A stretch of 64,000 nucleotides of DNA from a virus: the UHGV virus genome UHGV-0042229, one strand, 5' to 3'. A program made the position numbers and the translations under genes. Under the pieces are notes generated by a model. It worked only from the letters and a program-made list of their open reading frames with translations. It was not told where the DNA came from and ran no database searches. Shown here piece after piece: positions 1,686 to 40,364 of this stretch. How positions within the stretch are numbered: position 1 is the first letter of the stretch; every line of letters begins with the position of its first letter.

Positions 1686-2537
1686 ATGATAAATTATGTC
1701 TACGGCGAACAACTGTACCAGGAGTTCGTCAGCTTCAGGGATCTCTTTCTAAAAAAAGCTGTTGCACGCGCCCAACACGTTGATACAGCCAGCGACGGTC
1801 GTCCTGTACGCCCGGTTGTCGTTCTACCGTTCAAAGAAACTGACAGCATTCAGGCTGAAATTGATAAATGGACTTTAATGGCGCGGGAACTGGAACAGTA
1901 CCCAGACCTCAATATCCCAAAGACTATTTTATATCCAGTGCCTAACATCCTTCGCGGTGTGCGTAAGGTTACAACTTATCAGACAGAGGCTGTGAACAGC
2001 GTCAACATGACCGCTGGCCGCATTATTCATCTGATTGATAAGGACATTCGCATCCAAAAAAGCGCGGGGATCAATGAGCACAGTGCGAAATACATAGAGA
2101 ACCTGGAAGCAACAAAAGAGCTAATGAAGCAGTACCCGGAGGATGAAAAATTCCGTATGCGCGTACACGGCTTTAGCGAAACAATGCTGCGCGTCCACTA
2201 CATTTCCAGTAGCCCTAACTACAATGATGGTAAATCAGTTAGTTACCATGTGCCACTGTGTGGCGTGTTTATCTGCGATGAAACTCTCCGTGATGGAATT
2301 ATCATCAACGGTGAATTCGAAAAAGCAAAATTTAGCCTTTATGACTCTATAGATCCGATCATCTGCGACCGCTGGCCGCAGGCAAAAATATATCGCCTGG
2401 CAGATATTGAAAATGTAAAAAAACAAATTGCCATCACTCGCGAAGAGAAAAAGGTCAAATCAGCCGCATCAGTTACGCGCAGCCGTAAAACCAAGAAGGG
2501 GCAGCCAGTAAACGACAACCCCGAAAGCGCGCAATAA
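1686..2537 (+). CDS. c1: C1 repressor of lysis (283 aa)
   Basis: 283-aa ORF starting MINYVYGEQLYQEFVSFRDLFLKKAVARAQHV..., recognised as P1 C1; cognate 17-bp operators recur across the window. Confidence 0.92.
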   Translation: MINYVYGEQLYQEFVSFRDLFLKKAVARAQHVDTASDGRPVRPVVVLPFKETDSIQAEIDKWTLMARELEQYPDLNIPKTILYPVPNILRGVRKVTTYQTEAVNSVNMTAGRIIHLIDKDIRIQKSAGINEHSAKYIENLEATKELMKQYPEDEKFRMRVHGFSETMLRVHYISSSPNYNDGKSVSYHVPLCGVFICDETLRDGIIINGEFEKAKFSLYDSIDPIICDRWPQAKIYRLADIENVKKQIAITREEKKVKSAASVTRSRKTKKGQPVNDNPESAQ

Positions 2538-2569
2538 ATTATGCCCGGCATCAACCGGGCATTCTTCCA

Positions 2570-3685
2570 TTATTCAGCCGCCACCGGTTTTAACAAGCCA
2601 GCATCGAGCAGTTTACGCGTCAACCACTGCTGGCCTTTACCCGTTAATTGAGGCGTCAACCGTATCTGGTAGCCATCTTCATCATCCAGCACCACTTCTT
2701 TCACCGTGAAATACCCCGCGTTGATGTACTGCTGGAACGGCACATTTTTACGTCCACCGGACGCTATCAGGATGCCGTTCTCCCGTAACCAGACAAACAG
2801 CGCGTTTTGCTTAAGTCCAACAACCTTTGCAAAATTCCCAATCAGGATCCCTTTAGCTACTGATACCCGGTCGGCAAAATCGACTTTAGGAGCGGCGGCC
2901 ACCAGCTGCTGATTTAGCTGGTGGGCTTTCTGTTCCAGAAGCTGCTTTTGTTCAGCCAGTTCGGCAGCCAGGCGCAGAGCTTCTGGAAGCGTCTGGGGGA
3001 TTGCAACCGGTTGCTGTTCTTTTTGCCGGAAGTAGCTGTCTTCCAGTTTTTCAAAGAATGCCCATGCCTGATCGGTTTCGAGCATTTTAGCGTGGCGGGC
3101 TGCGCCGCGTTCCGTCCAGAGGATGAGTGAGCGGGCTTTAGGAGAGATAGGATTTTGTGAGTTACTTAAAGTCACCCGCAAATTGTTCAAATCATCTCCA
3201 ATAACTTTATAGAAATGCTTACCTTCACAAAAACGTTCAGCATTACGGGAAAAGTTCTTCTTGATGTTATCCGCATCTGTCCCATACCCCTTAGCAAGGA
3301 TCTTAGTTGTCACTACACGCACTCCCTGCCACTCTAGAACGGGAATTTCATCCGGCTGACTTTGAACAACCACCAGTTCTGATTCCTGAACTAAAGGTGT
3401 ATTAATTTTTTCAGATTTAACGTTAGTAGCTTTCATTCTGTGTGCCTCCTTGCGTGTTTCGGCTGCGACGGTTGCGTAATTCAGATGCCCCTGTTCGAGC
3501 AGGTATTCACGGATATCAGACAGCAGGATACGGTGAACAGCGTTCTTGTCCTTTCTCCGGTAAAGTTGTTTGGTGATCATGAAGTAGTTGGCAATAACGC
3601 CAGGTATATCCCTGGTACTGATACAGGCAGTGTGCTGTTCAATTGCCTCGATCATCTCTTCACGGGTAACTAACGATGTTCTCAT
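2570..3685 (-). CDS. Antirepressor-like protein (371 aa), second ant copy
   Basis: N-terminal ~90 aa and C-terminal ~130 aa (PQTLPEALRLAAELAEQK...GNFAKVVGLKQNALF...QIRLTPQLTGKGQQWLTRKLLDAGLLKPVA) closely resemble the immI Ant at 50874-51917; central domain differs. ATGA overlap with upstream icd-like ORF. Confidence 0.75.
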   Translation of the reverse strand: MRTSLVTREEMIEAIEQHTACISTRDIPGVIANYFMITKQLYRRKDKNAVHRILLSDIREYLLEQGHLNYATVAAETRKEAHRMKATNVKSEKINTPLVQESELVVVQSQPDEIPVLEWQGVRVVTTKILAKGYGTDADNIKKNFSRNAERFCEGKHFYKVIGDDLNNLRVTLSNSQNPISPKARSLILWTERGAARHAKMLETDQAWAFFEKLEDSYFRQKEQQPVAIPQTLPEALRLAAELAEQKQLLEQKAHQLNQQLVAAAPKVDFADRVSVAKGILIGNFAKVVGLKQNALFVWLRENGILIASGGRKNVPFQQYINAGYFTVKEVVLDDEDGYQIRLTPQLTGKGQQWLTRKLLDAGLLKPVAAE

Positions 3686-3903
3686 AGTCCCTCCTGAGCA
3701 GAAGCGTTAACAGGGAGGCACCAGTAACTGAGAGAATTGCGTGAATCAGTGGAAAAACGGGCAGAGAAAATACATGGGGCGTCAGGAAGCTGAGAGCGGG
3801 CCTCATCTTCTGTCGGTGCAATAACGAAGTGATAGTGACGTTTTTGGCAGGAGTAAAAGCGCCAGATAAATTCAGGATGAGTTGGGGTAGGGATAGTAGC
3901 CAT
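3682..3903 (-). CDS. Icd-like protein (73 aa), second copy
   Basis: From ATG at 3903 with AGGAGG RBS: MATIPTPTHPEFIWRFYSCQKRHYHFVIAPTEDEARSQLPDAPCIFSARFSTDSRNSLSYW..., highly similar to the 73-aa icd at 51914-52135. The track ORF 3682-4131 is an in-frame upstream extension. Confidence 0.6.
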   Translation of the reverse strand: MATIPTPTHPEFIWRFYSCQKRHYHFVIAPTEDEARSQLPDAPCIFSARFSTDSRNSLSYWCLPVNASAQEGL

Positions 3904-3959
3904 ATTGGCAGCCTCCTTAGACGTTGGTATGTAACCACCGCAGAAGAGACCAATCTTGC

Positions 3960-4050
3960 TGGCGGTGGACTGTACGGAGTTGGCCTTACTGGCGTCCAAG
4001 GTAACCAGCCTACCCGAAGGTAGCCCCATACAGCCCACCATTGTAGAGGT
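3960..4050 (-). ncRNA. Putative c4-like antisense RNA of the second immunity module (approximate bounds)
   Basis: Segment aaccagcctacccgaaggtagccccatacagcccaccattgta parallels the presumed c4 region aaccagcaggccgaagcctccccatcacgccccaccataattt upstream of icd at 52226-52270; flanking loop sequence differs. Confidence 0.3.
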
Positions 4051-4063
4051 GTGCGTGTACGCC

Positions 4064-4097
4064 GATACAAAAAAAAGACGCGAGCGGCGTCTGTATC
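4064..4097 (-). terminator. Rho-independent terminator downstream of pacB
   Basis: On the minus strand: stem gacgccgctcgcgtc followed by T8 (A-run 4069-4076 on plus), with outer gataca/tgtatc pairing. Confidence 0.6.
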
Positions 4098-4222
4098 GCC
4101 TTAGACTTAAGCGGGAGGCCAATCCCGGCACCCGTTTTAATGAGGTGCCTGATAAGCATAAACCGAAAATGCCTCAAGGCGCAAGAGGTCAGGTTCAATG
4201 TAACATCGGCAGTCAAAAAACA

Positions 4223-4239
4223 CAATTTATTAGAGCAAG
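4223..4239 (-). promoter_or_regulatory. C1 operator-like site just downstream of pacB stop
   Basis: caatttattagagcaag, 15/17 to reverse-complement consensus. Confidence 0.55.
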
Positions 4240-4242
4240 ATT

Positions 4243-5727
4243 TTACTCATTAAGCCATGCCAGAGCTTCATCAACCTGCGCTTCGTCTTCGACGCTAAGC
4301 ACTTCATCCTGGGGAACATAATCCGCCAGCATAGCGAAACAATATGTATCCCAATGGTCTGGTGAGTGCAGGTTGAGTTTTTTCTTCATATCCTCCTTAC
4401 TCATCACCTTCCATTGACCTGCGGAGTTAATCCCTACAGGGATTTTCGACGCTTCCTCAATAGTTTCATTACCCTTATCCAGTCTCATACGACCAGATTT
4501 TACGGCCTCTGCGGCTTGAACGTTGGCATAAGCACGTTTATCAAAGTACAGGCTCTTATCTTCACGGCTATGCATCTTTTTACCCCAGCGTATACGCTGT
4601 ACGGTAATACCATAATACTCGTACATCAGATCCGCCGTTGCTTTACCCAGGCCATCGCCGTCTATCGCTATGGTGATATTTGGGAATCGCTCAGGATTAC
4701 ATTCTGCGAAAATTTTGGCGGCAAGCTGCGTTTCTGTAACGTCTGTGTATTCCAGCATTCGATAGTTGATTACACGGCGTTTATTTCGCTGGCCGGACAC
4801 CATCATGATATTGATAACGGACTTATCCCGTCCCGTACCACCAGCAACGTCCACACATGCAAGCCAGCCCCATCCTTTTGCAATCTTGACTTTCCGCCGC
4901 GTTGCACGTTCAACCTCATCACGTCCAAGAAGGAAGCCATCCTGTGATTTAGGGAATAGGCCGCGTACCTTAATCATGTACATAGGGTTATCGCGCCCGC
5001 CGTACTCCGCCAGCTTCATTTTGATAAATGCTGGCGTTACCAGCGGTGATTCCTCACTGTTAAGCGTGATCGCCGTATAAACGCCATCAGGGTTACCAGG
5101 ACGCTTGGCCAGTTTATGGTGTGTATCGTAGAAATAGCCGCTTGGGCGTGTAGGCTGTGACAGCAATAAGATGCGGTTATCCTGTCCGGTAAGAGCACCG
5201 GTGATGATACCGAAAGCTCTATCACTGACACCGGAGGCTTCATCGATAATATACAGAAGATGATCTGCGTGTTCACCGGCGAGAGCTTCTTCACTTCCCA
5301 GACGAAAGCCCTTCGGTACTACAGTCCATACACCTTTACCAGTAACCTCATAGAAAGCGGTTTCTGTCAGAACAAAATAATCAGCAAGCCATGGAAAACG
5401 GCTGGTGGCAGTAGCCCAGTTTATCTTGATGTACTTGAATATACCGGTCATTACCTGCTGAATTTTGTTCGCAACGATAATGGCTCGGGCACCGGGATAC
5501 ATGATTATGAACAACATGATCATGATAGAAGTCATGTCTGATTTCCCGGTACCGTGGCCAGACGAAACAGATGTCTTGCTACCCTGTTCCTGCACAGACT
5601 CAATAATCAGATCCTGCTGCCAGGTAGGTGTTTTGCCGAACAAAACATCAGCGGCCGCAATCCAGTCATAACGATATAGCGCCACCAGCTCGCGCCAACG
5701 TGGATCCGTTACGCAACTTCTGGCCAT
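4243..5727 (-). CDS. pacB: Terminase large subunit PacB (494 aa)
   Basis: 494-aa ORF immediately downstream of and overlapping pacA; size and position as P1 pacB. Confidence 0.9.
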
Positions 5728-6955: not shown

Positions 6956-6978
6956 AGGGTAACGAAAGTCACATGTCA
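6956..6978 (-). promoter_or_regulatory. Late-promoter-like motif upstream of pacA
   Basis: Minus strand reads tgacatgtgac-tttcgt-TACCCT: same box...GTGAC, 6-nt spacer, TANNNT arrangement as the three plus-strand sites; about 30 nt upstream of pacA start. Confidence 0.45.
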
Positions 6979-7005
6979 AAAGGCCCGGAACGGGCAAGCA
7001 ATCAA

Positions 7006-7458
7006 TCAGATACGTGCGGATGTGGCATTACCGTAATGACGGTGCTGACGGGCCACCTTATTGAAAAGTTGACGCGCCATTACCCAAGGCTGGTGCTCCC
7101 GGCGTTCCTTTTCGTCCTGCGTCATATAGAGTTCGTTCTGGAGTTTTTCATCAAACCGGCGCGGAGCGCGGCTACGGCGAAAGAATTCAGGATTCAGAGA
7201 GTGGATCTGAAATCTACGTGGGCGTGTACTGTCATCAATCAAAACAGACGAATACTTAGACACAGCGATAGCCTTTAAGCGCAGATAAACATCGCGCTTA
7301 TCGACATCCAGATGCGGGTATTCCTTTTCAAGAATTGCTGCGAGTTCTTTCGCTGATAGAAGAGATTTAGTGCGGATCATGTAATCCGCAATCTCGTACG
7401 ATGTTATTCGTGAGTGATTTATTTCCATGAAGTGGCGTCCCTGCCAGTTAAGTAACAT
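7006..7458 (-). CDS. lpa: Late promoter activator Lpa-like protein (150 aa)
   Basis: 150-aa ORF immediately upstream of pacA in P1 gene order, preceded by a C1 operator-like site. Confidence 0.6.
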   Translation of the reverse strand: MLLNWQGRHFMEINHSRITSYEIADYMIRTKSLLSAKELAAILEKEYPHLDVDKRDVYLRLKAIAVSKYSSVLIDDSTRPRRFQIHSLNPEFFRRSRAPRRFDEKLQNELYMTQDEKERREHQPWVMARQLFNKVARQHRHYGNATSARI

Positions 7459-7528
7459 CCTGTCACCTACTGATTAGCCCATGTCAACTAATCAACGTGG
7501 AATATAATACCCTCGATTAAAGAAATAG

Positions 7529-7545
7529 CAATACATTAGAGCAAT
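7529..7545 (-). promoter_or_regulatory. C1 operator-like site upstream of lpa
   Basis: caatacattagagcaat, 14/17 to reverse-complement consensus. Confidence 0.45.
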
Positions 7546-7546
7546 T

Positions 7547-8590
7547 TTACCTAACACTCGACGAGTGACTTGTGATAGCGCCGACTCCAAGCGCGTAATC
7601 AAAGAACAATCGTTGATGCATCGCCAGCCTACCGTGCGTCTTCTCCCAATTATCGCGGTCACGCTCAATATCACGCTGGCATGACTGGCACAGAGGAATT
7701 GCGTAAATGTCATGCGCGCATAATCGACTATGACGAACGATATAAGGCGTAATGTGAGCGCCAGCTCCCGCCGCTCCACACCCACAGCATGGACGGGAAG
7801 CAACAAAGTCCATGTACTCAGGTAATTTTAGCGATTGCAGTTTTGGTATTTTGAAATGCGCCATGCCAGGGTCGGAGTCAACATCCACAGGGCATACTTT
7901 TGCACGCATCGGCGCGGCGCGTTCTTCCATCATCTGGACATATGCTGTAGCGCGATCGTCATACGGGCGAATATCCGCCTCTTTCAGAGGTCCGCTATCC
8001 TGCGTTGCGGCTTTCATCTTATTTATTGATATACGGTAAACTTCTTCCGGCATCAGGTGCATCATGTTGCGCATGAAAGCCCACCAGCACAGTTCCTGAA
8101 TACTTAAATCATGGCCATCTGAAAGCCCCATTTCCTGACGGGCGACATCCAGTATCCAGTTAACGCGATTATTATGCAGCGTTTCTTTCAGCTCATTAAA
8201 ACCACGCATCCGGTAATGGTTATCGTGATGCCAGCACAACAACACCGCGCTCTTGTCTCGTTCAGCGTGGACAATATGGTTGTCACACCAACTACGATCT
8301 GCGGCCTGGCATTGCCCCTCTTTCCTGCGCAACCACGCCACCAGCGCGTCAATTCCACCAATACGGCGAAACAGTTCATCGCTGTTAAAAAACGGCTGCA
8401 ACGCCTCATTTGTTGCCATAGTTTGCTCGGAAAAAACGAGGCCGTCGTCCATGTGCTCGATTAACTCACGCGGCACCGGCTCCATAATAAATTTACGGCC
8501 AGCCTCCACCAGCTTTCTGACTTCCTGATCCACTTTGAATGTGGCGACGCCAAGCTCTTTTTGTACAAAGGGAGTAATTACGGCTTTCAC
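7547..8590 (-). CDS. Hypothetical protein (347 aa), Cys-rich C-terminus; pdcB position
   Basis: ORF track; C-terminal CCGCG...H...C..CQSCQ cluster suggests zinc-binding, possibly HNH-like; sits downstream of doc as in P1. Confidence 0.55.
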
Positions 8591-8617
8591 ATCACACCTT
8601 TCATCACTGATTGGGCT

Positions 8618-8797
8618 TTATCTGCTGCCCGGCATTCTCTGTTTAAGCACAACCATTTCCTGACGGCATAACACAGCAATAGCGGTCCTGGCACCAATTT
8701 GCTTACCAACCAGGTATTGCTTTACCTCGCTGCGACTCACGCCATCAAGAAGCATCTTTAACGCTTCACGGGACAATTTGTTGTATTTGCGTGCCAT
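8618..8797 (-). CDS. Hypothetical small protein (59 aa from internal ATG)
   Basis: ORF track 8618-8818 trimmed to MARKYNKLSREALKMLLDGVSRSEVKQYLVGKQIGARTAIAVL...; possible small DNA-binding protein. Confidence 0.35.
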   Translation of the reverse strand: MARKYNKLSREALKMLLDGVSRSEVKQYLVGKQIGARTAIAVLCRQEMVVLKQRMPGSR

Positions 8798-8801
8798 TAA
8801 T

Positions 8802-9182
8802 CTACTCCGCAGAACCATACAATCTACGTAACGTGTCGGCGACAGAAGATACAGATATCTCTCCGGTCGCAGCCCCTACGGTAAGGTCTGCCAGTTCAGG
8901 TGAATCAAATACCTGCACCCCGTTACGGCGTAGAAATAACAGCGCACTGTTTAGCGCGGTACGCTTATTGGCATCATTGAATATATGCCCTCTCGCTGTA
9001 GCCACCAGGTAGGTGGCGGAGACTTCGAAAAGGTCGGTGATCTCTTCGTAGGCAACTCTGGCCTGAACTCTCCCGATAATGGCCTCTGCCCTACCCGGAT
9101 CTGACATTCCCGGCAGGCCGCCGTAGCGGTTTATATTCGCATCATGAAGCGCAATAAGTTCTTCCGGTGATATATGCCTCAT
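8802..9182 (-). CDS. doc: Doc toxin (Fic/Doc family, 126 aa)
   Basis: 126 aa, [39 protein letters not shown]...[11 protein letters not shown]..., overlapping phd stop. Confidence 0.93.
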
Positions 9183-9403
9183 TATCGGTTAACCAGTTCC
9201 TTGTTGGTGGAGTCCAGGGTGTCAAACAGGGATGCAAATTCAGCATCCAGCGCCGCTTTTTTGTAGGCTTCGAAAGTAGCCTTGCTGACAATTACTGCTG
9301 GCTCACGGCCTCTGCGGGTGATTTCAACCTCTTCCCCGGCTTCAACATTGTTGAGCACTTCAGAAAGGTTGCCGCGCGCGGTACGGAAGTTAATGGATTG
9401 CAT
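9182..9403 (-). CDS. phd: Phd antitoxin (73 aa)
   Basis: [73 protein letters not shown] from ATG at 9403; track ORF starts 2 codons earlier at GTG. Confidence 0.93.
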
Positions 9404-9412
9404 AAACACCTC

Positions 9413-9433
9413 GTGTACTCGTTATGTGTACAC
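9413..9433 (-). promoter_or_regulatory. Putative phd-doc operator (GTGTAC palindromes)
   Basis: gtgtac at 9413-9418 and gtgtacac at 9426-9433 directly upstream of phd. Confidence 0.4.
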
Positions 9434-9579
9434 AATTATAAACTTCACAGGCATAAAGCACCAGCACTTTGCGGCTTAACAAACCTCTAGGCAGATCATT
9501 CGTAGCCTAATGTCCGAACTGCTAAAGCATCCAAGTTGCTGTAGAATCACCGCCAATTACATAAGCCTGAAATAAGTGG

Positions 9580-11141
9580 ATGAAAATGACAAGTATTCAA
9601 CAACGTGCAGAGCTTCATCGTCAAATCTGGCAAATTGCTAACGATGTCAGGGGTTCGGTCGATGGATGGGATTTTAAGCAATACGTTCTGGGCGCACTTT
9701 TCTACCGTTTTATCAGCGAAAATTTTTCCAGCCATATGGAAGCCGGTGATGACAGTATCTGTTATGCGAAACTGGATGACAGCGTAATTACTGATGACAT
9801 TAAAGACGATGCCATCAAAACTAAAGGCTACTTCATCTACCCCAGTCAGCTTTTCTGCAACGTAGCTGCGAAAGCAAATACCAATGACAGACTGAATGCG
9901 GATTTAAACAGCATCTTCGTTGCTATCGAAAGTTCTGCTTACGGTTACCCTTCAGAAGCTGACATCAAAGGTTTGTTTGCTGATTTCGATACCACCAGTA
10001 ACCGCCTGGGTAACACCGTTAAGGATAAAAATGCCCGCCTGGCCGCGGTTCTGAAAGGGGTTGAAGGGTTAAAGCTTGGCGACTTTAACGAACATCAGAT
10101 TGACCTGTTCGGCGATGCCTATGAGTTCCTGATTTCTAACTATGCGGCAAATGCCGGTAAGTCAGGCGGTGAGTTCTTTACACCGCAGCACGTCTCCAAG
10201 CTGATTGCACAACTGGCTATGCACGGGCAGACCAGCGTTAACAAAATCTACGACCCGGCAGCGGGTTCCGGCTCACTGTTGTTGCAGGCGAAAAAACAGT
10301 TTGATAACCATATCATCGAAGAAGGTTTTTCGGTCAGGAAATCAACCATACGACCTATAACCTGGCGCGTATGAACATGTTTTTGCACAACATCAACTAC
10401 GACAAGTTTGATATCAAGCTGGGCAATACGCTGACTGAACCGCACTTCAGAGATGAAAAACCGTTTGATGCCATCGTTTCTAACCCGCCGTATTCGGTGA
10501 AATGGATTGGCAGCGATGACCCGACGCTGATTAACGATGAGCGTTTTGCCCCGGCTGGCGTTCTGGCCCCCAAATCCAAAGCTGACTTTGCGTTTGTATT
10601 ACATGCGCTGAACTATCTTTCGGCCAAAGGTCGTGCTGCGATTGTCTGCTTCCCGGGTATTTTTTACCGTGGCGGCGCAGAGCAGAAAATCCGTCAGTAT
10701 CTGGTCGATAATAACTATGTCGAAACCGTAATTTCACTGGCTCCGAACCTGTTCTTTGGCACCACCATTGCCGTAAACATTCTGGTTCTGTCCAAACATA
10801 AAACGGATACCAACGTTCAGTTTATTGATGCCAGCGAACTGTTCAAAAAAGAGACCAACAACAATATCCTGACCGATGCCCATATCGAACAGATTATGCA
10901 GGTATTTGCCAGCAAGGAAGATGTTGCTCATCTGGCGAAATCTGTTGCGTTTGAGACTGTTGTCGCGAATGACTATAACCTGTCGGTAAGCAGCTATGTG
11001 GAAGCCAAAGATACCCGCGAAGTTGTAGATATCACTGAACTGAATGCCGAACTGAAAACCACCGTCAGCAAAATCGACCAATTGCGCAAAGATATTGATG
11101 CGATTGTGGCTGAAATTGAAGGCTGCGAGGTGCAGAAATGA
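9580..11141 (+). pseudogene. hsdM: Type I R-M methyltransferase subunit HsdM (EcoR124-like), split by a -1 frameshift
   Basis: Track ORFs 9580-10374 (motif [11 protein letters not shown]) and 10371-11141 (motif IV NPPYS) are one HsdM. Frame breaks at GGTTTTTCGG (T5, 10326-10330): window reads [18 protein letters not shown], one extra T gives [25 protein letters not shown] joining the fragments. Confidence 0.8.
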
Positions 11142-12412
11142 GCGAGTTGAGTTATCTGGAAAAATTGCTGGATGGGGTTGAGGTTGAGTGGAAATCTTTG
11201 GGTGAAATTGCCACTAAAATTTACTCAGGGGGAACCCCGGATACAAAAAGAAAAGAGTATTGGGAGAATGGAACTATTCCCTGGATGAGTTCTGGCGAAG
11301 TGAACTTAAAAAATATTGAAAGGACAGAGAAATATATTACTGAGGCTGGATTAAATAACTCTAGTGCCAAATTAGTACCGAGAAACTCTGTAGTCATAGC
11401 CTTGGCTGGTCAGGGAAAAACTCGAGGTAAAGTAGCAAGAATCCGTATCGCATTAGCTACTAATCAATCACTTGCAGCACTTACATTTGATGAAAAGAAA
11501 TTCAGTTCCGATTACGTATTCCATTTTTTAGAGACTCAGTATGAGAGTTTGCGTCAAATATCATCTGGAAACAGCGGACGCGGCGGACTAAATCTGCAAA
11601 TGATTTCAGCATACAAAATCCCAATTCCCTGCCCGGATAATCCGGAAAAATCCCTTGCCATCCAGTCTGAAATCGTTCGGATTCTGGACAAATTCAGCGA
11701 GCTTACAGCAGAGCTTACAGCAGAGCTTAACATGCGTAAAAAACAGTACAACTACTATCGCGACCAGTTGTTGCGTTTTAAAGAGGGTGAGGTTGAGTGG
11801 AAGACTTTGGGGGAAATTGGAGATTTTACATATGGATATGCAGCCAAAGCCATGGATTCAGGAGATGCCCGTTTCGTGAGAATTACTGACATAAATAAAG
11901 ACGGGAAGCTATCGAAAGAAAACCCAATGTACGTTGAATTAAATGAGGAAAATGAGAAATATACCTTAGACAAAAATGATTTACTCATGGCAAGAACTGG
12001 GGCAACCTTTGGTAAAACAATGATTTTTGAAGAAGATTATCCAGCAGTATACGCTGGTTTTTTAATAAAGTTGAACCTAAATAAAACGATTATTAATGCC
12101 AAATATTACTGGCACTTTGCACAAAGTGATTTTTTTTGGGAACAGGCTAATAAATTAGTATCTGGTGGTGGGCAACCACAGTTTAATGCTAATGCACTGA
12201 AACAAGTCAGAGTACCTATTCCATACCCATCTCACCCTCAAAAATCTTTAGACGAACAGGGGCGTATTGTGGATATTCTGGATAAGTTTGATGCAATCGC
12301 AGCTTCCATCACCGAAGGTCTCCCGCGTGAAATCGAGTTGCGCCAGAAACAATACGAGTACTATCGTGATTTACTGTTCAGTTTCCCGAAACCTGAAACT
12401 GTCAGTAATTAA
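11138..12412 (+). CDS. hsdS: Type I R-M specificity subunit HsdS (424 aa), EcoR124 family
   Basis: ATGA overlap with hsdM; two target-recognition domains separated by a central region with tandem TAEL repeats. Confidence 0.88.
11705..11728 (+). repeat. Tandem 12-bp repeat (ACAGCAGAGCTT x2) encoding TAEL-TAEL in HsdS
   Basis: acagcagagctt at 11705-11716 and 11717-11728. In EcoR124I/II the TAEL copy number (2 vs 3) sets the spacer length of the recognition sequence. Confidence 0.8.
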
Positions 12413-12533
12413 TTGACCATTGCTACCGACCGGACCACCTTAACATCCGGTCTGTATATAGACTATTTTTTACGTGCCGGAAGTCACCCTTAACTCCCTT
12501 CCGGCCCTTGCCAGACGGCACAAAGGATGCGCT

Positions 12534-15500
12534 ATGACTCATCAGACACACACTATTGCTGAATCCAATAACTTTATCGTCCTTGATAAGTACATCAAAG
12601 CTGAGCCAACAGGCGACAGCTACCAGAGCGAATCGGACCTGGAACGTGAACTGATTCAGGACCTGCGGAATCAGGGCTATGAATTTATATCCGTAAAATC
12701 TCAGTCGGCTATGCTGTCCAATGTTCGGGAACAGCTTCAGAGCCTCAATGGTGTGGTGTTTAATGACAGCGAGTGGCGGCGTTTCACGGAGCAGTATCTG
12801 GACAACCCGAGCGATGGCATTCTGGATAAAACCCGTAAAATCCATATCGACTATATCTGCGACTTTATTTTTGACGACGGGCGACTTGAGAACATCTATT
12901 TGATAGATAAAAAGAATCTCATGCGCAATAAGGTGCAGATTATCCAGCAGTTTGAACAGACGGGTTCTCATGCTAACCGTTATGACGTCACGATCCTGGT
13001 TAATGGCTTACCACTGGTACAAATCGAACTGAAAAAGCGCGGCGTGGCGATTCGTGAGGCTTTCAACCAGATACATCGTTACAGTAAAGAGAGTTTTAAC
13101 AGCGAAAATTCCCTGTTTAAGTATCTGCAACTGTTTGTCATTTCTAACGGCACCGATACCCGTTACTTTGCCAACACCACAAAGCGCGATAAAAACAGTT
13201 TTGATTTCACCATGAACTGGGCGAAATCAGACAACACGCTGATTAAAGACCTCAAAGACTTTACCGCTACCTTTTTCCAGAAACATACTCTGCTGAATGT
13301 TCTGGTGAACTACAGCGTGTTTGACAGTAGTCAGACGTTACTGGTGATGCGACCGTACCAGATTGCCGCCACCGAGCGCATTCTGTGGAAAATTAAGAGC
13401 TCCTTTACAGCGAAGAACTGGTCAAAACCGGAAAGCGGTGGGTATATCTGGCACACTACCGGTTCTGGTAAAACCCTTACCAGCTTTAAAGCCGCGCGTC
13501 TGGCAACAGAGCTGGACTTTATTGATAAAGTCTTCTTTGTGGTCGACAGAAAAGACCTCGATTACCAGACCATGAAGGAATATCAGCGTTTTTCGCCAGA
13601 CAGCGTCAACGGCTCGGAAAATACCGCAGGCCTTAAACGAAATCTGGATAAGGACGATAACAAAATTATCGTCACTACTATTCAGAAACTCAATAACCTG
13701 ATGAAAGCAGAAAGCGACCTGCCTGTATATAATCAGCAAGTGGTGTTCATATTTGATGAATGCCACCGCAGCCAGTTTGGAGAAGCGCAGAAAAACCTGA
13801 AGAAGAAATTCAAACGCTATTATCAGTTTGGTTTTACCGGCACCCCTATTTTCCCGGAAAACGCCTTAGGCTCAGAAACAACCGCCAGCGTATTTGGTCG
13901 TGAATTGCATTCGTATGTAATTACCGATGCGATTCGTGACGAAAAAGTGCTCAAATTCAAGGTGGACTACAACGATGTGCGGCCACAGTTTAAGTCTTTA
14001 GAGACAGAAACTGACGAGAAAAAACTAAGTGCGGCTGAAAATCAGCAGGCGTTTCTTCATCCCATGCGTATTCAGGAAATCACGCAATATATTCTGAATA
14101 ATTTCCGCCAGAAAACTCACCGTACCTTCCCTGGCTCAAAAGGTTTTAATGCTATGTTGGCAGTGAGCAGCGTGGATGCCGCGAAAGCCTATTATGCGAC
14201 GTTTAAACGGTTACAAGAAGAAGCCGCTAATAAATCGGCTACCTATAAACCGCTGCGTATTGCGACAATCTTCTCCTTTGCCGCCAATGAAGAACAAAAT
14301 GCCATTGGTGAAATTTCCGATGAAACTTTTGATACCAGCGCAATGGACAGCAGTGCTAAAGAGTTTCTGGACGCTGCAATTCGTGAATATAACAGCCATT
14401 TTAAAACTAACTTTAGCACCGACAGTAACGGTTTTCAGAACTACTATCGTGATTTAGCCCAGCGGGTTAAAAATCAGGATATCGATCTGCTAATTGTCGT
14501 GGGGATGTTTTTAACCGGCTTCGATGCTCCAACATTGAACACGCTATTCGTCGATAAAAACTTGCGTTTTCACGGCCTGATGCAGGCATTTTCCCGCACC
14601 AACCGTATTTATGATGCAACTAAAACCTTCGGTAATATCGTCACTTTCCGGGATCTGGAACGCTCAACTATTGATGCCATAACGCTGTTTGGTGACAAAA
14701 ACACCAAAAATGTGGTGTTAGAAAAGAGTTATACAGAGTATATGGAAGGCTTTACTGATGCTACTACTGGTGAAGCTAAACGCGGCTTCATGACAGTAGT
14801 TTCAGAACTGGAACAACGGTTCCCTGACCCTACCAGTATTGAAAGTGAAAAAGAGAAGAAAGACTTCGTTAAACTGTTTGGCGAATACCTGCGTGCCGAG
14901 AACATCCTGCAAAACTATGATGAATTTGCCACGCTAAAAGCCCTGCAACAAATCGATCTTAGCGATCCTGTTGCGGTAGAAAAATTCAAAGCAGAACATT
15001 ATGTGGATGATGAAAAGTTCGCTGAATTGCAAACAATTCGTCTCCCTGCTGATCGCAAGATTCAGGATTATCGTTCTGCCTATAACGATATTCGCGACTG
15101 GCAGCGCCGTGAGAAAGAAGCTGAGAAAAAAGAGAAATCAACCACTGACTGGGATGACGTAGTTTTTGAGGTCGATTTGCTGAAGTCTCAGGAAATAAAC
15201 CTGGATTATATCCTTGGACTGATTTTCGAACACAACAGACAAAATAAAGGCAAGGGCGAAATGATCGAAGAGGTCAAACGCTTAATTCGTTCAAGCCTAG
15301 GGAACCGTGCTAAAGAGGGCCTGGTGGTCGATTTTATTCAGCAAACGAACCTGGATGATTTACCGGACAAAGCCAGCATCATTGACGCATTCTTTACGTT
15401 TGCTCAACGCGAACAGCAACGTGAAGCAGAAGCATTGATAAAAGAAGAAAATCTCAATGAAGATGCAGCAAAACGCTATATTCGCACGTCTTTAAAACGC

Positions 15501-15650
15501 GAATATGCCACCGAAAATGGCACAGAATTAAACGAAACATTACCAAAACTTAGTCCGTTGAATCCGCAATATAAAACGAAAAAACAGGCAGTTTTCCAGA
15601 AAATCGTCTCGTTTATTGAGAAGTTTAAAGGGGTAGGCGGAAAAATATAG
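12534..15650 (+). CDS. hsdR: Type I restriction enzyme R subunit HsdR (1038 aa), EcoR124-like
   Basis: From ATG at 12534 with AAGGA RBS: [33 protein letters not shown]...; helicase motifs (TTGSGKT, DECHRSQ). Track ORF starts 20 codons upstream at GTG. Confidence 0.9.
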
Positions 15651-15729
15651 CCCAATTCGTGTTTTTCTTGCGGGTTCTTTATTAAACCCGCAAGAGATCG
15701 TGGGGTTCCAAATGGCTAATATACTCCCC

Positions 15730-15816
15730 TTACCCATGCGCGACGATGCCGCCAAAAGTGATAGAGAACAGCCAGAAATAGATCGTGGCCATAATGATTT
15801 TGAATGCCGTGTTCAT
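15730..15816 (-). CDS. Hypothetical 28-aa hydrophobic peptide MNTAFKIIMATIYFWLFSITFGGIVAHG
   Basis: ATG at 15816 with GGAG RBS 8 nt upstream; single predicted TM helix; lies downstream (minus strand) of the C1 operator at 15899-15915. Confidence 0.3.
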   Translation of the reverse strand: MNTAFKIIMATIYFWLFSITFGGIVAHG

Positions 15817-15844
15817 ATTTTCAGCTCCAGTGATTGATTGGATA

Positions 15845-15875
15845 CATGCCGCGCCTTGCGGCATGTTTTTATTTT
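15845..15875 (+). terminator. Rho-independent terminator after the hsd operon
   Basis: Stem catgccgc/gcggcatg with 5-nt loop followed by tttttatttt. Confidence 0.6.
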
Positions 15876-15898
15876 CACTTTCTCTGTTTTAAAAATCA

Positions 15899-15915
15899 AG
15901 ATTTATTAGAGCAAT
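15899..15915 (-). promoter_or_regulatory. C1 operator-like site
   Basis: agatttattagagcaat, 16/17 to reverse-complement consensus; followed on the minus strand by TTGATT-N17-GAAAAT. Confidence 0.6.
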
Positions 15916-16421
15916 TATTGTTGATGGAGAAGCGCGTTTTCATACTCCCTGACCATTAACGTAAGTACGCCGTGACTCCTGAAAACACGCGCCACTTCAA
16001 TCTTATCTTCCAGCGCGAACGCGATTTTACTTAGACCAATTTTCTTAAGGAGATCAATCTTTGCTGGGCCGTCATTTCTGTCATCGGTGGCAGGACGCAT
16101 AGATAGCAAAGGCTCAGCCCCATTTGTTACGTGCTTACGCAACCAGGCTCGTGTTTTATCCCTGGCTATCTCACAGCGCCCGGTTACAAACCAGAGGGTG
16201 TAAATGCCGGACAACTGGCGCACCATATCAATAACTGGAGTGATGGGAGCATCAGTGTCACAGGCGAGATTAAACTCGTTCCAGTCCTTTGTTAATGCAC
16301 CTTTACCTGGTGGCGGAAGCAAATGCAGTCTGTCTTCAGTTGCCTCTGATATTGTTCCATCAATATCGACTATGACGATATACGGACGTTCCTGGTGTGC
16401 GTGTTTATTGAAAATACTCAA
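15915..16421 (-). CDS. HAD-superfamily phosphatase (168 aa); P1 pap-like position
   Basis: N-terminal VIVDIDGTIS (DxDGT motif I of HAD hydrolases). Confidence 0.65.
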   Translation of the reverse strand: MSIFNKHAHQERPYIVIVDIDGTISEATEDRLHLLPPPGKGALTKDWNEFNLACDTDAPITPVIDMVRQLSGIYTLWFVTGRCEIARDKTRAWLRKHVTNGAEPLLSMRPATDDRNDGPAKIDLLKKIGLSKIAFALEDKIEVARVFRSHGVLTLMVREYENALLHQQ

Positions 16422-16494
16422 ATGCCCTCCTCATTGGACGAAAAAAAATGCTGGTGGGCGCACTCCACCAGCATTAAAAGTGACACTGTAACTA

Positions 16495-17757
16495 TCAGCG
16501 GACGTAAATAGTGCCGCAGTTCTCTTTTTCCCATGCATCGCTACGTGCATAGCAAACATCGAGAAGTCTTCTTGCCGCTGTTTCCTCTAAACCCAATTCG
16601 ACAACCAACTGCTCATGACGGCGGGTAACCACATCAAACAGGGTATGCAACCCTTTAGTTGCCAGATCATCAATGAATTCCGGTTCGAACGGCAGCTCTG
16701 CATCTGCCAACATAACCTCTTGCGCCCACTCAACTCGACGGACCAATTCCGGGCGGCGGCTTTCCATCTCTTTACAGATCAATTCATGGAAGAACTCTAC
16801 CCAACCTTCCGGCTGGAACTCGCGGAAAATTGCCAACGGCTGGAAGTTTGGCATCAACCATTCGTTGATTCGGATATCAATGGCATAGCCCATGTCGCAG
16901 CAGAACTGATAAGCAAAGTCCAGCTTAGAAACGATATAAGGACGCTCGTTATTGAACTCTTTAGGCGATGAGATCCCATAAGCCAGGAGGCGCGGGAAGA
17001 AGGAGATTTGCCCTAACGTCGGATGAAGTTTGCTTGCAGGGAAACGGCGCTCAGTAATGCCATACATTTCCTTCTTGAGCGTCGCAAATTTGGCATTCTC
17101 ATTAACCAGCGCGGTAACCTCTGCTTTTTTATTAGCAAATGCCACGCGCGCTTCGCTTGCATCTTTAATAGTTTTTTTGAGCTGTTGGTTAAGGTCGGCG
17201 ACCTGCTTACGCAGTTCCTGTCGCTCGCTTTTAGCTTTGTTATAGCGTTTCTCAAGGTTAAAAGGATCAAGTTTCATGATCTCTTTATATTGAGATTTTA
17301 GCGTTGAAATCTGTGAGTTCCGCAGTTCAACCATCGCGGTCATTTCATTGAGTTTTGTTTCCAGCTCAATGCTTATACGTTCGGCATTATCAGCACGCTG
17401 GTTGGCGTCATGCGTCGCATCGTCGATCGCGTCCTGTTGCTGGCGTTTCAAATGTTCAATTTGCAGCTGAAGCTCTTCAATTTCTTTACCCTTCAGACCG
17501 AGATCCAACTGCATATTTTCAGCTGCATCTACCAGGGAGTTATGGCTATCAGCTTCTGCGTTATAAACATCAATAAGCTGTGCGTGAAGCATCTCCGCTG
17601 ACTGAACCGCATTATCAAAAAAACGCGCTGTGAGGTCATCACAACTAACGCGGCGTTGCGCGGCCCGGATGTTCTGGATAATGGCCGGGATACCGGCATT
17701 CAGGACGTCAGGGATAGATACATTTTCGATTGATTGGTTTTGTGCTGAAGTGATCAT
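16495..17757 (-). CDS. Hypothetical protein (420 aa), central coiled-coil
   Basis: ORF track; heptad-rich region ~residues 90-200; no family recognised. Confidence 0.55.
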   Translation of the reverse strand: MITSAQNQSIENVSIPDVLNAGIPAIIQNIRAAQRRVSCDDLTARFFDNAVQSAEMLHAQLIDVYNAEADSHNSLVDAAENMQLDLGLKGKEIEELQLQIEHLKRQQQDAIDDATHDANQRADNAERISIELETKLNEMTAMVELRNSQISTLKSQYKEIMKLDPFNLEKRYNKAKSERQELRKQVADLNQQLKKTIKDASEARVAFANKKAEVTALVNENAKFATLKKEMYGITERRFPASKLHPTLGQISFFPRLLAYGISSPKEFNNERPYIVSKLDFAYQFCCDMGYAIDIRINEWLMPNFQPLAIFREFQPEGWVEFFHELICKEMESRRPELVRRVEWAQEVMLADAELPFEPEFIDDLATKGLHTLFDVVTRRHEQLVVELGLEETAARRLLDVCYARSDAWEKENCGTIYVR

Positions 17758-17758
17758 T

Positions 17759-17977
17759 TCAAAGTTCCGTATTAGCTTGTGCTTCGGTCATTTTTCCTAA
17801 GTATGAAGGAGGAAGGACTACGCAATTTGTATCCAGTCCCTCACCTATGGCAGCCTGTAAAATTCTGGCTAAGGTGAGTCTCTTGTTGCGATACCTGGTG
17901 ATGACATGCCTGATACCGCCGGTCGGCGTAACAAAGGCGATCAGCCAGTAGTGATATTTCCGTCGGAATGGCCACAT
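17759..17977 (-). CDS. Hypothetical protein (72 aa)
   Basis: ORF track; first gene downstream of the operator pair at 17992-18057. Confidence 0.35.
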   Translation of the reverse strand: MWPFRRKYHYWLIAFVTPTGGIRHVITRYRNKRLTLARILQAAIGEGLDTNCVVLPPSYLGKMTEAQANTEL

Positions 17978-17991
17978 AGTGCACCTTGTAG

Positions 17992-18008
17992 ATTGCTCTA
18001 ATAAAAAA
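17992..18008 (+). promoter_or_regulatory. C1 operator-like site
   Basis: attgctctaataaaaaa, 14/17. Confidence 0.45.
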
Positions 18009-31542: not shown

Positions 31543-34500
31543 ATACCCAAAACGTCATGAGCTACACCTCGAGTGTCCCCCTTACAAGACACAGAACGTC
31601 TGGCAAAAAGAGGTTCCACTCTGAAGCCACTGTCATGATAAAGCTCTCTGATGTTTGGCGCGCCACTGTTAGTAATGAGAACCTTTGCACCTCGACGATG
31701 AGCATCCGTCAACAGAGACACCAGGCGTTTTTGCTCTTCAAACTTAAAGTCATGACCGGAATAGTTCGTGAATCCCTCTGTATTTGGAAGCGGTTCATAC
31801 GGCGGATCGCAAAAGATGACATCTCCTTCTCCGGCAGCTTCAATCACCGCTGCAAAATCACCGCATACAAACTCAGACCGCCCTTCCGCACCGAGGAAGG
31901 CTTCCATCTCCTGTAATGGGAAATACGGAGTTTTATACTTCCCATAACCGACATTGAACTCACCGGCCTGGTTGTAGCGCGTCAATCCGTTAAAACAATG
32001 TCGGTTCAGGAACAAAAACGCCGCTGCGCGATGTAAATCATCATAGACTTGTTTGTTAAACGCATTCCGTACTGCCAAGTATCCCTCCTGGGTGTTGTAG
32101 TCCAGGAAAAAACGATGTGCCAGAGTGATAAGTGAATGCTCCTCGCGTTGCAGAGTCTTGTAAAAGTTAATCAGGTCAGCATTCACATCATTTAGCAGAT
32201 TTTCCTGGTATCCGGCATTCATGAAGACAGCTCCGCCACCGACGAAAGGTTCAATCAGGCGCTTCCCTTCTGGCAAATAGCGAAAGATTTGTTCCAGAAC
32301 ACCAAATTTTCCACCGGCCCATTTGAATATGGACCGTTCGAATTCTGCCGCTGGTTTAACTTTTCGCTCTTTTGTTTCACTTCCTTCTTTCTGCCGACAT
32401 ACGGCCTTAGTAATCCGATCGCCAATCCAGCGCATTACTGGTATTGCCATACTATTGCCGATCGCTTTGTAACGCGGTCCGTCAGCTGCAAGCATTGCGG
32501 CCTCTTCTTCGCTTAAATCTGGATAGTGATTGTGCAGATATGCCAGTTCATCTGAATTAACTTTTTTACGCTTTTCCGTAGGGATCAACGTATGCCAATC
32601 AGGAAAACCTTGCAGCCTTTCACATTCGACAGGGGTAAGACGGCGCATTCTACCGTCGCCGAGCAATACAATTGGTGCTTCATGGTTACATGTCAAAGTT
32701 GGTGCCGAATTATCGGTTTTTATCTCAGCCCCTCCTTGCCCATGTGCCATGGCAATTATGTTTGTATCATCGCAAGTTCTGATAGCGATGTTTGAAGTAT
32801 ATCTGGTAGTTTCCTTCCCCTCGCCTCTGCTCGGCGCAATATTCCGGCGCACGCCTTCGAACTCAAAAAGTACCGTTGCGGGATCGAGGTCTGTTCGAGC
32901 ACTTGCGACAACAAACACGCGTCGGCGTCGTTGTGCCACTCCGAAGTATTGGGCATCAAGGATTCTCCAGGCCACTTTTCGCTGCGGTCCATAAATACAA
33001 CCACACTGCGGCCACTTTGGAGCATGGCAACCGGTTTTGACATCCCACCGCCAGAATGCGTTACTTTTTCCTGATTCAGGTCGATCACCTGGTTCGAATG
33101 GCGCATCTTCTCCAGCCAATCCGGCAAGGAAACATCCGAAGGCGTTATCTGCCGATGACAAGACTCCTGGGACATTTTCCCAGACGATAACGGCTGGTTT
33201 GAGAAATGACTCAGCCCGTTTGTCGTCAATTGCATTTGCAAGCTCCACATACTTTAAAGTTAGCGCGCCACGCTCATCATCAAGCCCACCACGTAATCCA
33301 GCGATACTGAATGCCTGACAGTTATGGACCACCGCACCATTGAGGATATAGGAATGATCACCTTCGACTTCTATGTTGTATACAGTATCTAGGCCTACCG
33401 ATTTAAACTCTTTGACTGTTCGTAAAAGCATTCCATGAGCCAATCTTGATTTACGTGACAATTTCTGCGGGCAGATTGTTACCTGATAATAATTCCGTTG
33501 ATTTACCACGCGATCCTCAATCACTTTTTTGGGCTTAACTTCAATAAAGCTGACCGAAGAAACATAACCACAAGTCTGTGACAACTCCGCAACGCCCCAA
33601 GCAAGCGCAGGACTAACACTATTAATTCTAAATCCCGCTTTACCACTTGGTGTCCCATCAGTATCAAGATAGCCTTGTAAAAACACATGACGCAATGGAT
33701 GCGACATAACCCATGCAGGGATACGCTTAGCATGGCTTAACTCGCCAAAATGTTCATTAAGCCAATTGGCATAACACGTATCATTCAAGGTTACTTTGAT
33801 GCTCCCTCGGATTTCGCTTGCCACGGAAAATATGTTTTCTGGTATGCGGCAATGAAACTTTCTCAATTTCTGGCAATTTATGCCAAAAACAACCGCCTTC
33901 TTAGATTTACCTCTCCATCTCCTAATATATCCATCGCCAACATAAGCGCCCGCAAGATACATAGCCTGTTCTTCAGACAAGAACCGAGAACAAATATCTG
34001 GAGATGCAATATTGAAATTAGTTAGAGCACACCATTGATATCCCGGCATATCACATGCTGCTCGCCATTCCGGTTCAGACAACAACTCTCTCTTAAAATA
34101 TGTGCCATTTTTCCGGGTGTTTTGGGCTTTCCACCGAACCGCCAGGAAGGGATGGTCATTGGTTGTTCTTATACCTAAAGGCTGCCCAACGGCATTAAGT
34201 AACCCCGTATTAGCTATTTTTGAACCAACTCTTTTTACTTGTTGTAACCGCCCGAGATGACTGACTACGTAATCGCCAGGGCAAACATCTTCTATTGGTT
34301 TATAACCATTTTTACAAAGAACCATATGCCCCGCGGTAAAACATGGTGTCCCTCCCACCAGCACATCAGGGGCTTCAATTTCTCCAGCCTGGACTTTTTG
34401 GGCGAGTTTTGTCATGTCGCCAAGGTTGGCGACATGGGGCCAGTGGTACGCAAGAACGGCAGATGGAAAAGGCTCGATTTCAGCAAACCACGCCGGACGC

Positions 34501-34574
34501 ATACCCAACGGTTCCCAGGCAATACTCGCGGCTTCAATTCCACTGCAAACAGATCCATAGCACAGCTCTTTCAC
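31533..34574 (-). CDS. dmt: Bifunctional DNA methyltransferase Dmt (C5-cytosine MTase N-domain + Dam-like N6-adenine MTase C-domain), interrupted by an in-frame intein; 1013 codons
   Basis: N-domain C5-MTase motifs (VLVGGTP|CQAFSIAG split, [16 protein letters not shown]); C-domain Dam-like ([26 protein letters not shown]). GTG start overlaps upstream gene stop. Confidence 0.85.
33321..34343 (-). mobile_element. Intein (341 codons) with LAGLIDADG homing-endonuclease domain, inserted in the PCQ motif of the Dmt C5-MTase domain
   Basis: Begins [13 protein letters not shown]... (block A Cys1), contains IRTTNDH (block B TxxH), LAGLIDADG-like [13 protein letters not shown] and [13 protein letters not shown], ends ...[11 protein letters not shown] followed by +1 Cys of CQAFSIAG. 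Residues 78-418 of the ORF; in frame, no stops. Confidence 0.8.
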
Positions 34575-38186: not shown

Positions 38187-38190
38187 AACA

Positions 38191-39255: not shown

Positions 39256-39257
39256 TA

Positions 39258-40357: not shown

Positions 40358-40364
40358 CACTGAT

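Follow-up and report, generated by a model that had tools for sequence, protein, structure and literature searches.

An EcoR124-family type IC restriction-modification cassette with a frameshifted hsdM between phd-doc and pap of a P1-like phage-plasmid

The DNA analysed here, a stretch of 64,000 nucleotides of the virus genome UHGV-0042229 (hereafter the window), carries at 9480-15725 a cluster of hsd genes that forms a type IC restriction-modification cassette of the EcoR124 family, located in a variable slot of P1-like genomes, most likely exchanged via its flanks and probably inactivated by a recent deletion in hsdM. In intact type IC systems the methyltransferase consists of two HsdM and one HsdS and methylates one adenine per strand of a split asymmetric target, which is set by the two HsdS recognition domains. 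When the target is unmethylated, two HsdR subunits join, pull the DNA in with ATP and cut it at a distance; an intact system shields the lysogen against foreign DNA.

A first-pass annotation, made from the sequence alone, had placed an EcoR124-like type IC island at 9450-15900, between phd-doc and a pap-like gene, and these limits lie close to the breakpoints obtained by alignment to P1 (Table 1); the cluster is on the plus strand, and phd-doc and pap are both on the minus strand. Between phd and pap, the window has 6246 bp in place of the 3487 bp of P1, in which nine genes are found (humD, lxr, hot, upfO/N/M and pmgV/U/T). The same annotation had named pmgT-V, hot, lxr and humD as the P1 occupants of this position and had found none of them in the window: the P1 alignment agrees with the former, and none of the nine genes was detected in the 64 kb (tblastn, nothing below E = 0.06; blastn, no match). 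The type III res-mod genes of P1 presumably correspond to a position beyond the left end of the window. On both sides the flanks are P1-like, with 97.5% identity to P1 at 7500-9479 and 97.9% at 15726-18000. The region upstream of phd, site of the P1-annotated promoter Pphd, is retained, and the backbone is the same up to 9479 in the alignment; the GCGGCTTAA at this breakpoint is the reverse complement of the P1 humD stop codon. At the right breakpoint, the first gene of the slot (pmgT or upf86.8) begins in P1, P7, JL22 and SJ46. A G+C profile, which had been proposed as a check, gave 43.8% for the island against 47.7% for the remainder of the window, lower than in all other stretches of 6246 bp (500-bp sampling step; minimum 44.6%), and 36-40% for the hsdS recognition domains.

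Table 1. Features of the hsd island and its flanks (positions in the window)
Feature	Position	Strand	Description
doc (P1 addiction toxin)	8802-9182	-	TIGR01550 DOC_P1, 1e-39; Pfam Fic
phd (antitoxin)	9182-9403	-	Pfam PhdYeFM; TIGR01552
Left breakpoint versus P1	9479/9480		Alignment; backbone homology up to ...GCGGCTTAA
Island leader upstream of hsdM	9480-9579	+	Only in hsd cassettes of P1 context
hsdM, 5' fragment	9580-10374	+	264-aa ORF
1-nt deletion in hsdM	10325-10326	+	Alignment to relatives
hsdM, 3' fragment	10371-11141	+	256-aa ORF from MNMFLHN; motif IV NPPY
hsdS	11138-12412	+	424 aa; Pfam Methylase_S, two copies
12-bp TAEL repeat	11695-11729	+	TRF period 12; two full TAEL units
Promoter-like site TTAACA-18-TATTTT	12440-12469	+	Consensus scan only; in the hsdS-hsdR gap
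hsdR	12534-15650	+	1038 aa; nuclease, SF2 motor, helical and EcoR124_C domains
Island hairpin, 13 bp	15664-15697	+	After hsdR stop; fold -26.9 kcal/mol, z = -4.2
Right breakpoint versus P1	15725/15726		4 nt past the stop of the small backbone ORF
Small hydrophobic backbone ORF	15730-15816	-	28 aa, MNTAFKIIMATIYFWLFSITFGGIVAHG; GGAG upstream
Terminator-like hairpin	15844-15866	+	10-bp stem, then TTTTTATTTTC; scan; fold z = -5.3
C1 repressor operator OpmgT (Op88)	15899-15915	-	P1 annotation transferred by alignment
pap (phosphatase)	15915-16421	-	Pfam HAD_PNKP; right flank

The three genes encoding type I subunits were recognised by their profiles (TIGR00497 for hsdM, Methylase_S for hsdS and TIGR00348, with 770 bits, for hsdR). 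HsdR combines the nuclease with an SF2 ATP-dependent motor (Pfam HSDR_N, SWI2_SNF2/ResIII, T1R_D3-like and EcoR124_C) and matches a solved HsdR over its full length, with residues 1-1038 aligning to residues 1-1038 of EcoR124I HsdR (PDB 2w00; 2297 bits). Complementation and hybridisation first served to define the type IC family, and the window's membership is read here from the closeness of HsdR and HsdM to the family (514 of 520 residues identical to EcoR124 HsdM, 7bst_D, after repair of the frameshift), from the gene order hsdM-hsdS-hsdR and the gap that precedes hsdR, and from the 12-bp TAEL repeats in the central conserved region of HsdS; the phd-doc and pap flanks, with humD-pmgT replaced, are those of the P1-borne members. 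The EcoR124-like type IC identity claimed in the first-pass annotation is borne out by the comparisons of HsdR, HsdM and HsdS. Its description of the cluster as complete holds for the presence and order of the three genes but not for hsdM, which is frameshifted.

The start of hsdS overlaps the stop of hsdM by 4 nt, and its product follows the layout of an N-terminal conserved region, a first target recognition domain (TRD1), a central conserved region, a second one (TRD2) and a C-terminal conserved region. The protein is 99% identical to its counterpart in pLR-48_1 (NZ_AP027544), with 99.5% between the two hsdS genes, and aligns with EcoR124 HsdS (7bst_A) in the conserved parts only; TRD1 is weakly similar to TRD2 of EcoR124 (62.6 bits), and the recognition domains showed no close match to any solved or characterised one. 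Since both are unlike those of EcoR124, the target would not be GAA N6 RTCG. The number of TAEL repeats has been reported to set the length of the spacer (PMC3874165), and the two units present here predict one of 6 bp. Sister alleles with the same recognition domains, such as that of pLR-71-1_3, have three units; the hsdS allele is rare, and it occurs both with two and with three.

The 121-bp gap between hsdS and hsdR harbours a promoter-like site, which is a candidate for a separate hsdR promoter, although a weak one: the consensus scan that found it gave 8 sites in this region against 11.4 expected. The longest hsdR reading frame opens at a GTG at 12474, whereas the homologues begin at the ATG listed in Table 1. 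Upstream of hsdM, the leader holds TGTAGAAT, an extended -10-like sequence at which a promoter may be located; the consensus scan returned no site in the leader.

At the right end, the first-pass annotation had credited the cluster with its own terminator, a claim that did not stand. The hairpin directly after the hsdR stop has no U tract, and it is conserved among other P1-borne hsd islands. The sole canonical hairpin followed by a T run is located 119 bp outside the island and is shared with P1, being invariant in P1, P7, JL22 and SJ46, all of which lack hsd; this terminator belongs to the backbone, though it would be able to stop read-through from hsdR. The small ORF between the two hairpins is likewise conserved in all P1 relatives examined, and 135-nt coding sequences overlapping it have been annotated in phi456 (OR339795), JL22 and SJ46 ("membrane protein").

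The predicted activity of the cassette is affected by the deletion of one nucleotide in hsdM. At this site the window reads GAAGGTTTTTCGG, compared to GAAGGCTTTTTCGG or GAAGGTTTTTTTGG in intact relatives (GGC-T5-C or GGT-T7); aligned at the deletion, GAAGG-TTTTTCGG in the window stands against GAAGGCTTTTTCGG in pLR-48_1 and phi456. As a consequence of the frameshift, the 5' ORF keeps native residues 1-248, which include AdoMet motif I (DPAAGSG) as well as the N-terminal domain, and terminates after a further 16 residues read in the wrong frame; it matches positions 1-244 of TIGR00497, HsdM_N and positions 2-71 of N6_Mtase. The 3' ORF lies in a different frame, its ATG overlapping the stop of the 5' ORF (ATGA), and matches positions 269-515 of TIGR00497 and 95-310 of N6_Mtase. 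Native residues 249-263 are encoded by neither, the hsdM profile is left without a match at positions 245-268, where the FGQE region lies between motif I and motif IV, and no uninterrupted HsdM frame with all AdoMet-binding and catalytic motifs is present. Because hsdM is split and the FGQE region removed, both modification and restriction would be lost, and the present copy is probably inactive on both counts. The loss of hsdM is a safe route to inactivation, since restriction goes along with modification. The lesion is recent, as hsdS and hsdR are still intact and HsdR differs from that of pLR-48_1 at 7 of 1038 residues, against about 58 nt across 12500-15749; the system seems only just to have been lost, via hsdM, in this copy.

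It is conceivable, and the most serious of the alternatives even if we regard it as improbable, that the frameshift arose as an error of sequencing or assembly and that the window really codes for an intact, active system whose HsdS has a rare specificity. A single base is concerned, beside a homopolymer (a T run, which reaches T7 in some alleles), hsdS and hsdR are intact, with few amino-acid changes in HsdR, and the frameshift allele, searched as an exact 39-mer, was not found in species-representative genomes or viral contigs. On the other hand, a second assembly carries this very allele, namely the metagenome contig UMFS01051056.1 (100% identical over 6239 bp), which may share its sample with the window and so perhaps gives no independent support. 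The P1 alignment covers about 40 kb of backbone without showing a further uncompensated indel at coding positions, and for this reason the frameshift is probably real rather than an artefact.

With respect to the way in which the cassette reached the slot, homologous recombination in the conserved flanks would most likely account for the swap, since the island has no mobility genes and its junctions no repeats. A self-mobile transposon or integrative element inserted into P1 is a very unlikely alternative: the G+C content of the island is below that of the backbone and the same three genes are also found in chromosomes beside IS elements, but neither transposase nor integrase is encoded in the island, terminal repeats and a target duplication are lacking (no direct or inverted repeat of at least 7 nt is common to both breakpoints), and 3.5 kb were replaced rather than gained, with breakpoints at the ends of genes. 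In the chromosomal copy MB19 the match to the window begins only at 9574, the shared part being 9574-15650.

Two further proposals concern control of the system and, even taken jointly, are highly improbable. The C1 operator to the right of the island has its core ATTGCTCTAATAAAT on the minus strand (15901-15915), and the leftward promoters P1pmgT and P2pmgT annotated in P1 overlap it; in the window, transcription from them would run into the island on the strand opposite to hsdR. If these C1-repressed promoters did fire into hsdR, prophage induction could shut restriction down in lytic growth. Alternatively, the lesion at the T run of hsdM would be one state of a reversible switch, which would give a type I system borne by a phage on/off control. 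Least probable of all is that the split hsdM is still active, either through ribosomal or transcriptional slippage at the T run or because the two fragments associate via the ATGA overlap, and perhaps as such a switch: the overlap of stop and start at 10371 and the T5 run, T7 in one relative, speak for it, but the residues missing from both ORFs, intact relatives without such an arrangement and the length of T5, far below that of tracts known to switch, speak against it. The reading of hsdM as recently inactivated is retained here.

As for the slot itself, the whole phd-hsd-pap arrangement was found in about 225 of 599 P1-like PLSDB plasmids (records covering at least 80% of it) and in two of the 24 phage records matching the query, phi456 and vB_EcoM-673R5 (ON470615), so that hsd genes are not uniformly present in the P1 family at this position; uniform presence would have spoken against the first-pass annotation. 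The full P1-type slot from pmgT to humD, by comparison, occurs in only 4 PLSDB plasmids, which makes the reference P1 atypical at this place. This region, pmgT-humD, corresponds to variable region 8 of P1-like phage-plasmids, for which a paper that nowhere uses the word "hsd" reports high variability and a low G+C content (PMC9603915), and all region 8 genes of P1 that were tested, upfM not being among them, have been reported as non-essential (PMC10695390). Slot content differs among P1, P7, JL22, SJ46 and the hsd carriers, and JL22 has lambdoid ea-type genes and an adenine methyltransferase among its cargo. The earlier suggestion of a defence-cargo hotspot is supported as regards variability but not as regards defence: in the two alternative versions screened (P1 and P7), none of the ten slot proteins matched a PADLOC model (set of 2023) and one matched Pfam (Ead/Ea22).

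The presence of an hsd cassette in the P1 slot is already known. The GenBank record of P1 marks these flanks as 96-98% identical to those of the EcoDXXI and R124/3 hsd genes, Tyndall et al. are said to have reported in 1997 (Mol Microbiol 23:729) that the type IC hsd loci EcoDXXI, EcoR124 and EcoprrI are flanked by P1 DNA, and the arrangement occurs in hundreds of plasmids. The present case is therefore modest as a discovery, a textbook phage-plasmid restriction system swapped as a cassette.

Compared to the type IC archetype, EcoR124I/EcoR124II (R124, R124/3), the window shares the M-S-R order, a full-length HsdR match, the conserved regions of HsdS and the two TAEL repeats of EcoR124I, whereas both recognition domains differ and hsdM is frameshifted in the window only; the replicon of EcoR124 is a conjugative plasmid, that of the window a P1-like phage-plasmid. 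For R124/3, the P1 record notes P1 DNA downstream of hsdR. The P1-flanked loci EcoDXXI, EcoR124 and EcoprrI have phd-doc on the left and pap or the region upstream of pmgT on the right, as in the window, but there the flanks are short P1 remnants, while those of the window run into a full P1-like genome. The same arrangement with the same junctions is found in phi456, vB_EcoM-673R5 and pLR-48_1, in all of which hsdM is intact, unlike in the window; in phi456 the recognition domains are different and the hsdS region is longer by about 1.2 kb. In a comparison with phages, plasmids and complete E. coli genomes, pLR-48_1 came closest to the window (97.8-97.9%, and 97.9% over 10.5 kb), and no record reached 99% over the whole length.

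The window reads as a P1-like genome: apart from a few replaced segments, 968-55468 is collinear with the opposite orientation of P1 94800-45001 (93-98% identity). P1 pdcB-pdcA-doc-phd corresponds to window 7500-9479 (97.5% match), and the pmgT-upstream region with pap and pmgS to 15726-18000 (97.9% match). Between phd-doc and pap lie four long ORFs (see table), flanked by ORFs for Doc, Phd, a DUF968 protein (P1 PdcB) and a HAD phosphatase (P1 Pap); no mobility gene was found within the island. This slot measures 3487 bp in P1 versus 6246 bp of hsd sequence in the window. Of its nine P1 genes (humD, lxr, hot, upfO, upfN, upfM, pmgV, pmgU and pmgT), all but the three upf genes had been noted as missing, and none of the nine was found throughout the window, whether searched as protein or as DNA.

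Features of the hsd cassette and related hsdS alleles
Feature	Position	Strand	Assignment
hsdM front half (ORF1)	9580-10374	+	Pfam and NCBIfam; HsdM profile positions 1-244
hsdM back half (ORF2)	10371-11141	+	Pfam and NCBIfam; same single HsdM, profile positions 269-515
HsdS	11138-12412	+	two Methylase_S domains
HsdR	ORF 12474-15650	+	HSDR_N, SWI2/SNF2, domain 3, EcoR124_C
Three-TAEL hsdS allele, plasmid pLR-71-1_3 (L008)	L008 101-1387		
Three-TAEL hsdS allele, E. coli MB19 chromosome (L009)	L009 6001-7287		

Multiple alignments placed the left breakpoint at 9479/9480, homology extending as far as the humD stop codon, and the right one at 15725/15726, where homology resumes 4 nt past the stop codon that closes a small conserved ORF; the start of pmgT, or of its P7, JL22 or SJ46 counterpart, coincides with the right breakpoint. 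No direct or inverted repeats of at least 7 nt were common to both junctions. The chromosomal copy of E. coli MB19 matches only 9574-15650, which makes the 94-bp leader and 75-bp trailer peculiar to the P1 context. Island G+C content is 43.8% versus 47.7% elsewhere, and is lowest in the recognition domains. A hydrophobic 28-aa ORF in the pmgT leader (15730-15816, minus strand; MNTAFKIIMATIYFWLFSITFGGIVAHG), with a GGAG ribosome-binding site, marks the exact right border of the island; it is kept in every P1 relative examined and lacks annotation in the P1 record.

The slot is differently filled in other P1 relatives: P7 carries ~7.5 kb of upf genes and IS903, JL22 an adenine methyltransferase and Ea22/EaA genes, and SJ46 a string of hypothetical genes, humD adjoining phd in all three. 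The synteny comparison proposed in the first-pass annotation thus showed that hsd genes are not uniform at this position, being absent from P1, P7, JL22 and SJ46. PADLOC matched none of ten P1 and P7 slot proteins, and Pfam returned only an Ead/Ea22 match. Because the slot is variable but these P1 and P7 proteins lack PADLOC matches, the data support a variable accessory slot in which a restriction system is one common occupant; of the "defence-cargo hotspot" suggested earlier, the variability holds and the defence character is not supported.

The pap-pmgS flank is at least 80% covered in 599 PLSDB plasmids, in 225 of which the whole phd-hsd-pap stretch is also at least 80% covered. At the same coverage, P1's own slot content (1981-5467 of the P1 record, L001) was found in only 4 PLSDB plasmids and the pap-proximal 5.1 kb of the P7 slot in 12. 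At this slot the reference P1 genome is atypical, and the non-hsd versions are highly mosaic; fragments of the P1 pmgT-humD block turn up in 723 plasmid records. Phages phi456 and vB_EcoM-673R5 carry hsd at the same place, and in any context the cassette reaches at least 80% query coverage in 1120 of 5426 complete E. coli genomes. Tyndall et al. reportedly dealt with hsd loci flanked by P1 DNA. According to the P1 GenBank annotation, the doc-phd stretch is 98% identical to the DNA that precedes the EcoDXXI hsd locus, and the pap-pmgT intergenic region 96-98% identical to the DNA that follows the hsd genes of EcoDXXI and R124/3. [quoted passage not shown] The feature is genuine and of an ordinary kind: how it spreads, where it sits and to which family it belongs have all been described before. 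The new details are a rare hsdS allele and a probable recent hsdM knockout.

The assignment to the EcoR124-like type IC family was borne out: HsdR, read from the ATG at 12534, aligned at full length with EcoR124I HsdR (residues 1-1038, 2297 bits), and HsdM with one base restored is identical to EcoR124 HsdM at 514 of 520 residues. The cluster had been called complete, which is incorrect, as hsdM is split by a 1-nt deletion at 10325/10326 (window GAAGGTTTTTCGG; the P1-like plasmid pLR-48_1 and phi456 GAAGGCTTTTTCGG; MB19 GAAGGTTTTTTTGG). The missing base shifts the frame past HsdM residue 248; ORF1 stops 16 codons on, and ORF2 begins at an internal Met, its ATG overlapping the ORF1 stop. Native residues 249-263, between motif I (DPAAGSG) and motif IV (NPPY), are in neither ORF. 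Since the methylase core of type I enzymes is required for modification and restriction alike, the copy as sequenced should be r-m-.

We think, because of the indels in the P1-aligned backbone and an identical metagenome contig, that this lesion is probably real; an error, the less likely account, still has an appreciable chance. Over ~40 kb of backbone, indels relative to P1 are confined to mutually compensating pairs within divergent stretches and to four differences of a single base (16448, 31332, 50868 and 52286), all four falling outside genes when mapped onto the P1 annotation or window ORFs. The contig (UMFS01051056.1, 37,995 bp) is 100% identical to window 6970-13208, deletion included, over the 6239 bp compared; it may represent this same element, both deriving from one sample or from related ones. 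If real, the inactivation is recent, given that HsdR differs from that of pLR-48_1 by only 7 residues, as against ~58 nucleotide differences over 12500-15749.

The terminator earlier ascribed to the island belongs to the backbone: close to the 3' end only one site has canonical terminator-like form (15844-15866, with a 10-bp stem and then a T run), and P1, P7, JL22 and SJ46, all without hsd, carry it unchanged. This predicted site can end hsdR transcripts, and was not brought by the island, whose own hairpin (15664-15697), a strong one lying past the hsdR stop, has no U tract. The C1 operator OpmgT is kept at 15899-15915, overlapped in the P1 annotation by two leftward pmgT promoters. In the hsd variant these promoters would point via the small ORF into the hsdR 3' end, in antisense, and a lowering of restriction by such transcription after induction is a candidate idea.

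Several other segments differ from P1. The Dmt methyltransferase (31533-34574, minus strand) has 1013 aa versus 754 aa in P1. A 340-aa intein (Cys79 to His-Asn418, Cys at +1) with Hint and LAGLIDADG domains lies within its C5-methylase half, at the catalytic motif GGTP-C-QAFS; RCS47, vB_EcoM-Ro157c2YLVW and the laboratory P1 record OP279344 share this insert. Between c1 and pacB (2570-4131, minus strand), a 1.7-kb segment without P1 counterpart carries genes for a 371-aa antirepressor with ORF6N and ANT/KilAC domains and for a 149-aa protein of the Ash family. The plasmid replication region (38165-40427) is unlike that of P1, with a Rep3-type initiator (38335-39255), which probably represents the p0111-type replicon reported for JL22, and a T5orf172-domain protein (39548-40357) ahead of parA. 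The position of the P1 sim superimmunity genes (52464-53841) holds a glycine-zipper protein (52748-53269), weakly TraT-like with Pfam scores below gathering, and a DUF5384 protein (53273-53812).

Window HsdS shares its N-terminal, central and C-terminal conserved regions with EcoR124 HsdS, whereas both recognition domains are unlike. The allele is rare: among 5426 complete E. coli genomes 7 cover at least 80% of it, as do 2 plasmids in PLSDB. The phi456 hsdS region (3640-6077 of L003, the phi456 record) is ~1.2 kb longer and holds three separate annotated ORFs, one mislabelled "baseplate hub protein", which suggests a duplicated or disrupted hsdS. As in EcoR124I, the central region of window HsdS has two TAEL units; in the EcoR124 family two units correspond to a 6 bp spacer and three to 7 bp (PMC3874165). 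HsdS proteins with three units, 99% identical to that of the window, occur on the P1-like plasmid pLR-71-1_3 and the MB19 chromosome; their TRD2 is unchanged, and their TRD1 carries one or two substitutions. Judged by their sequences, the two- and three-unit alleles are a natural N6/N7 spacer pair, found on phage-plasmid and chromosome, comparable to EcoR124I and EcoR124II.
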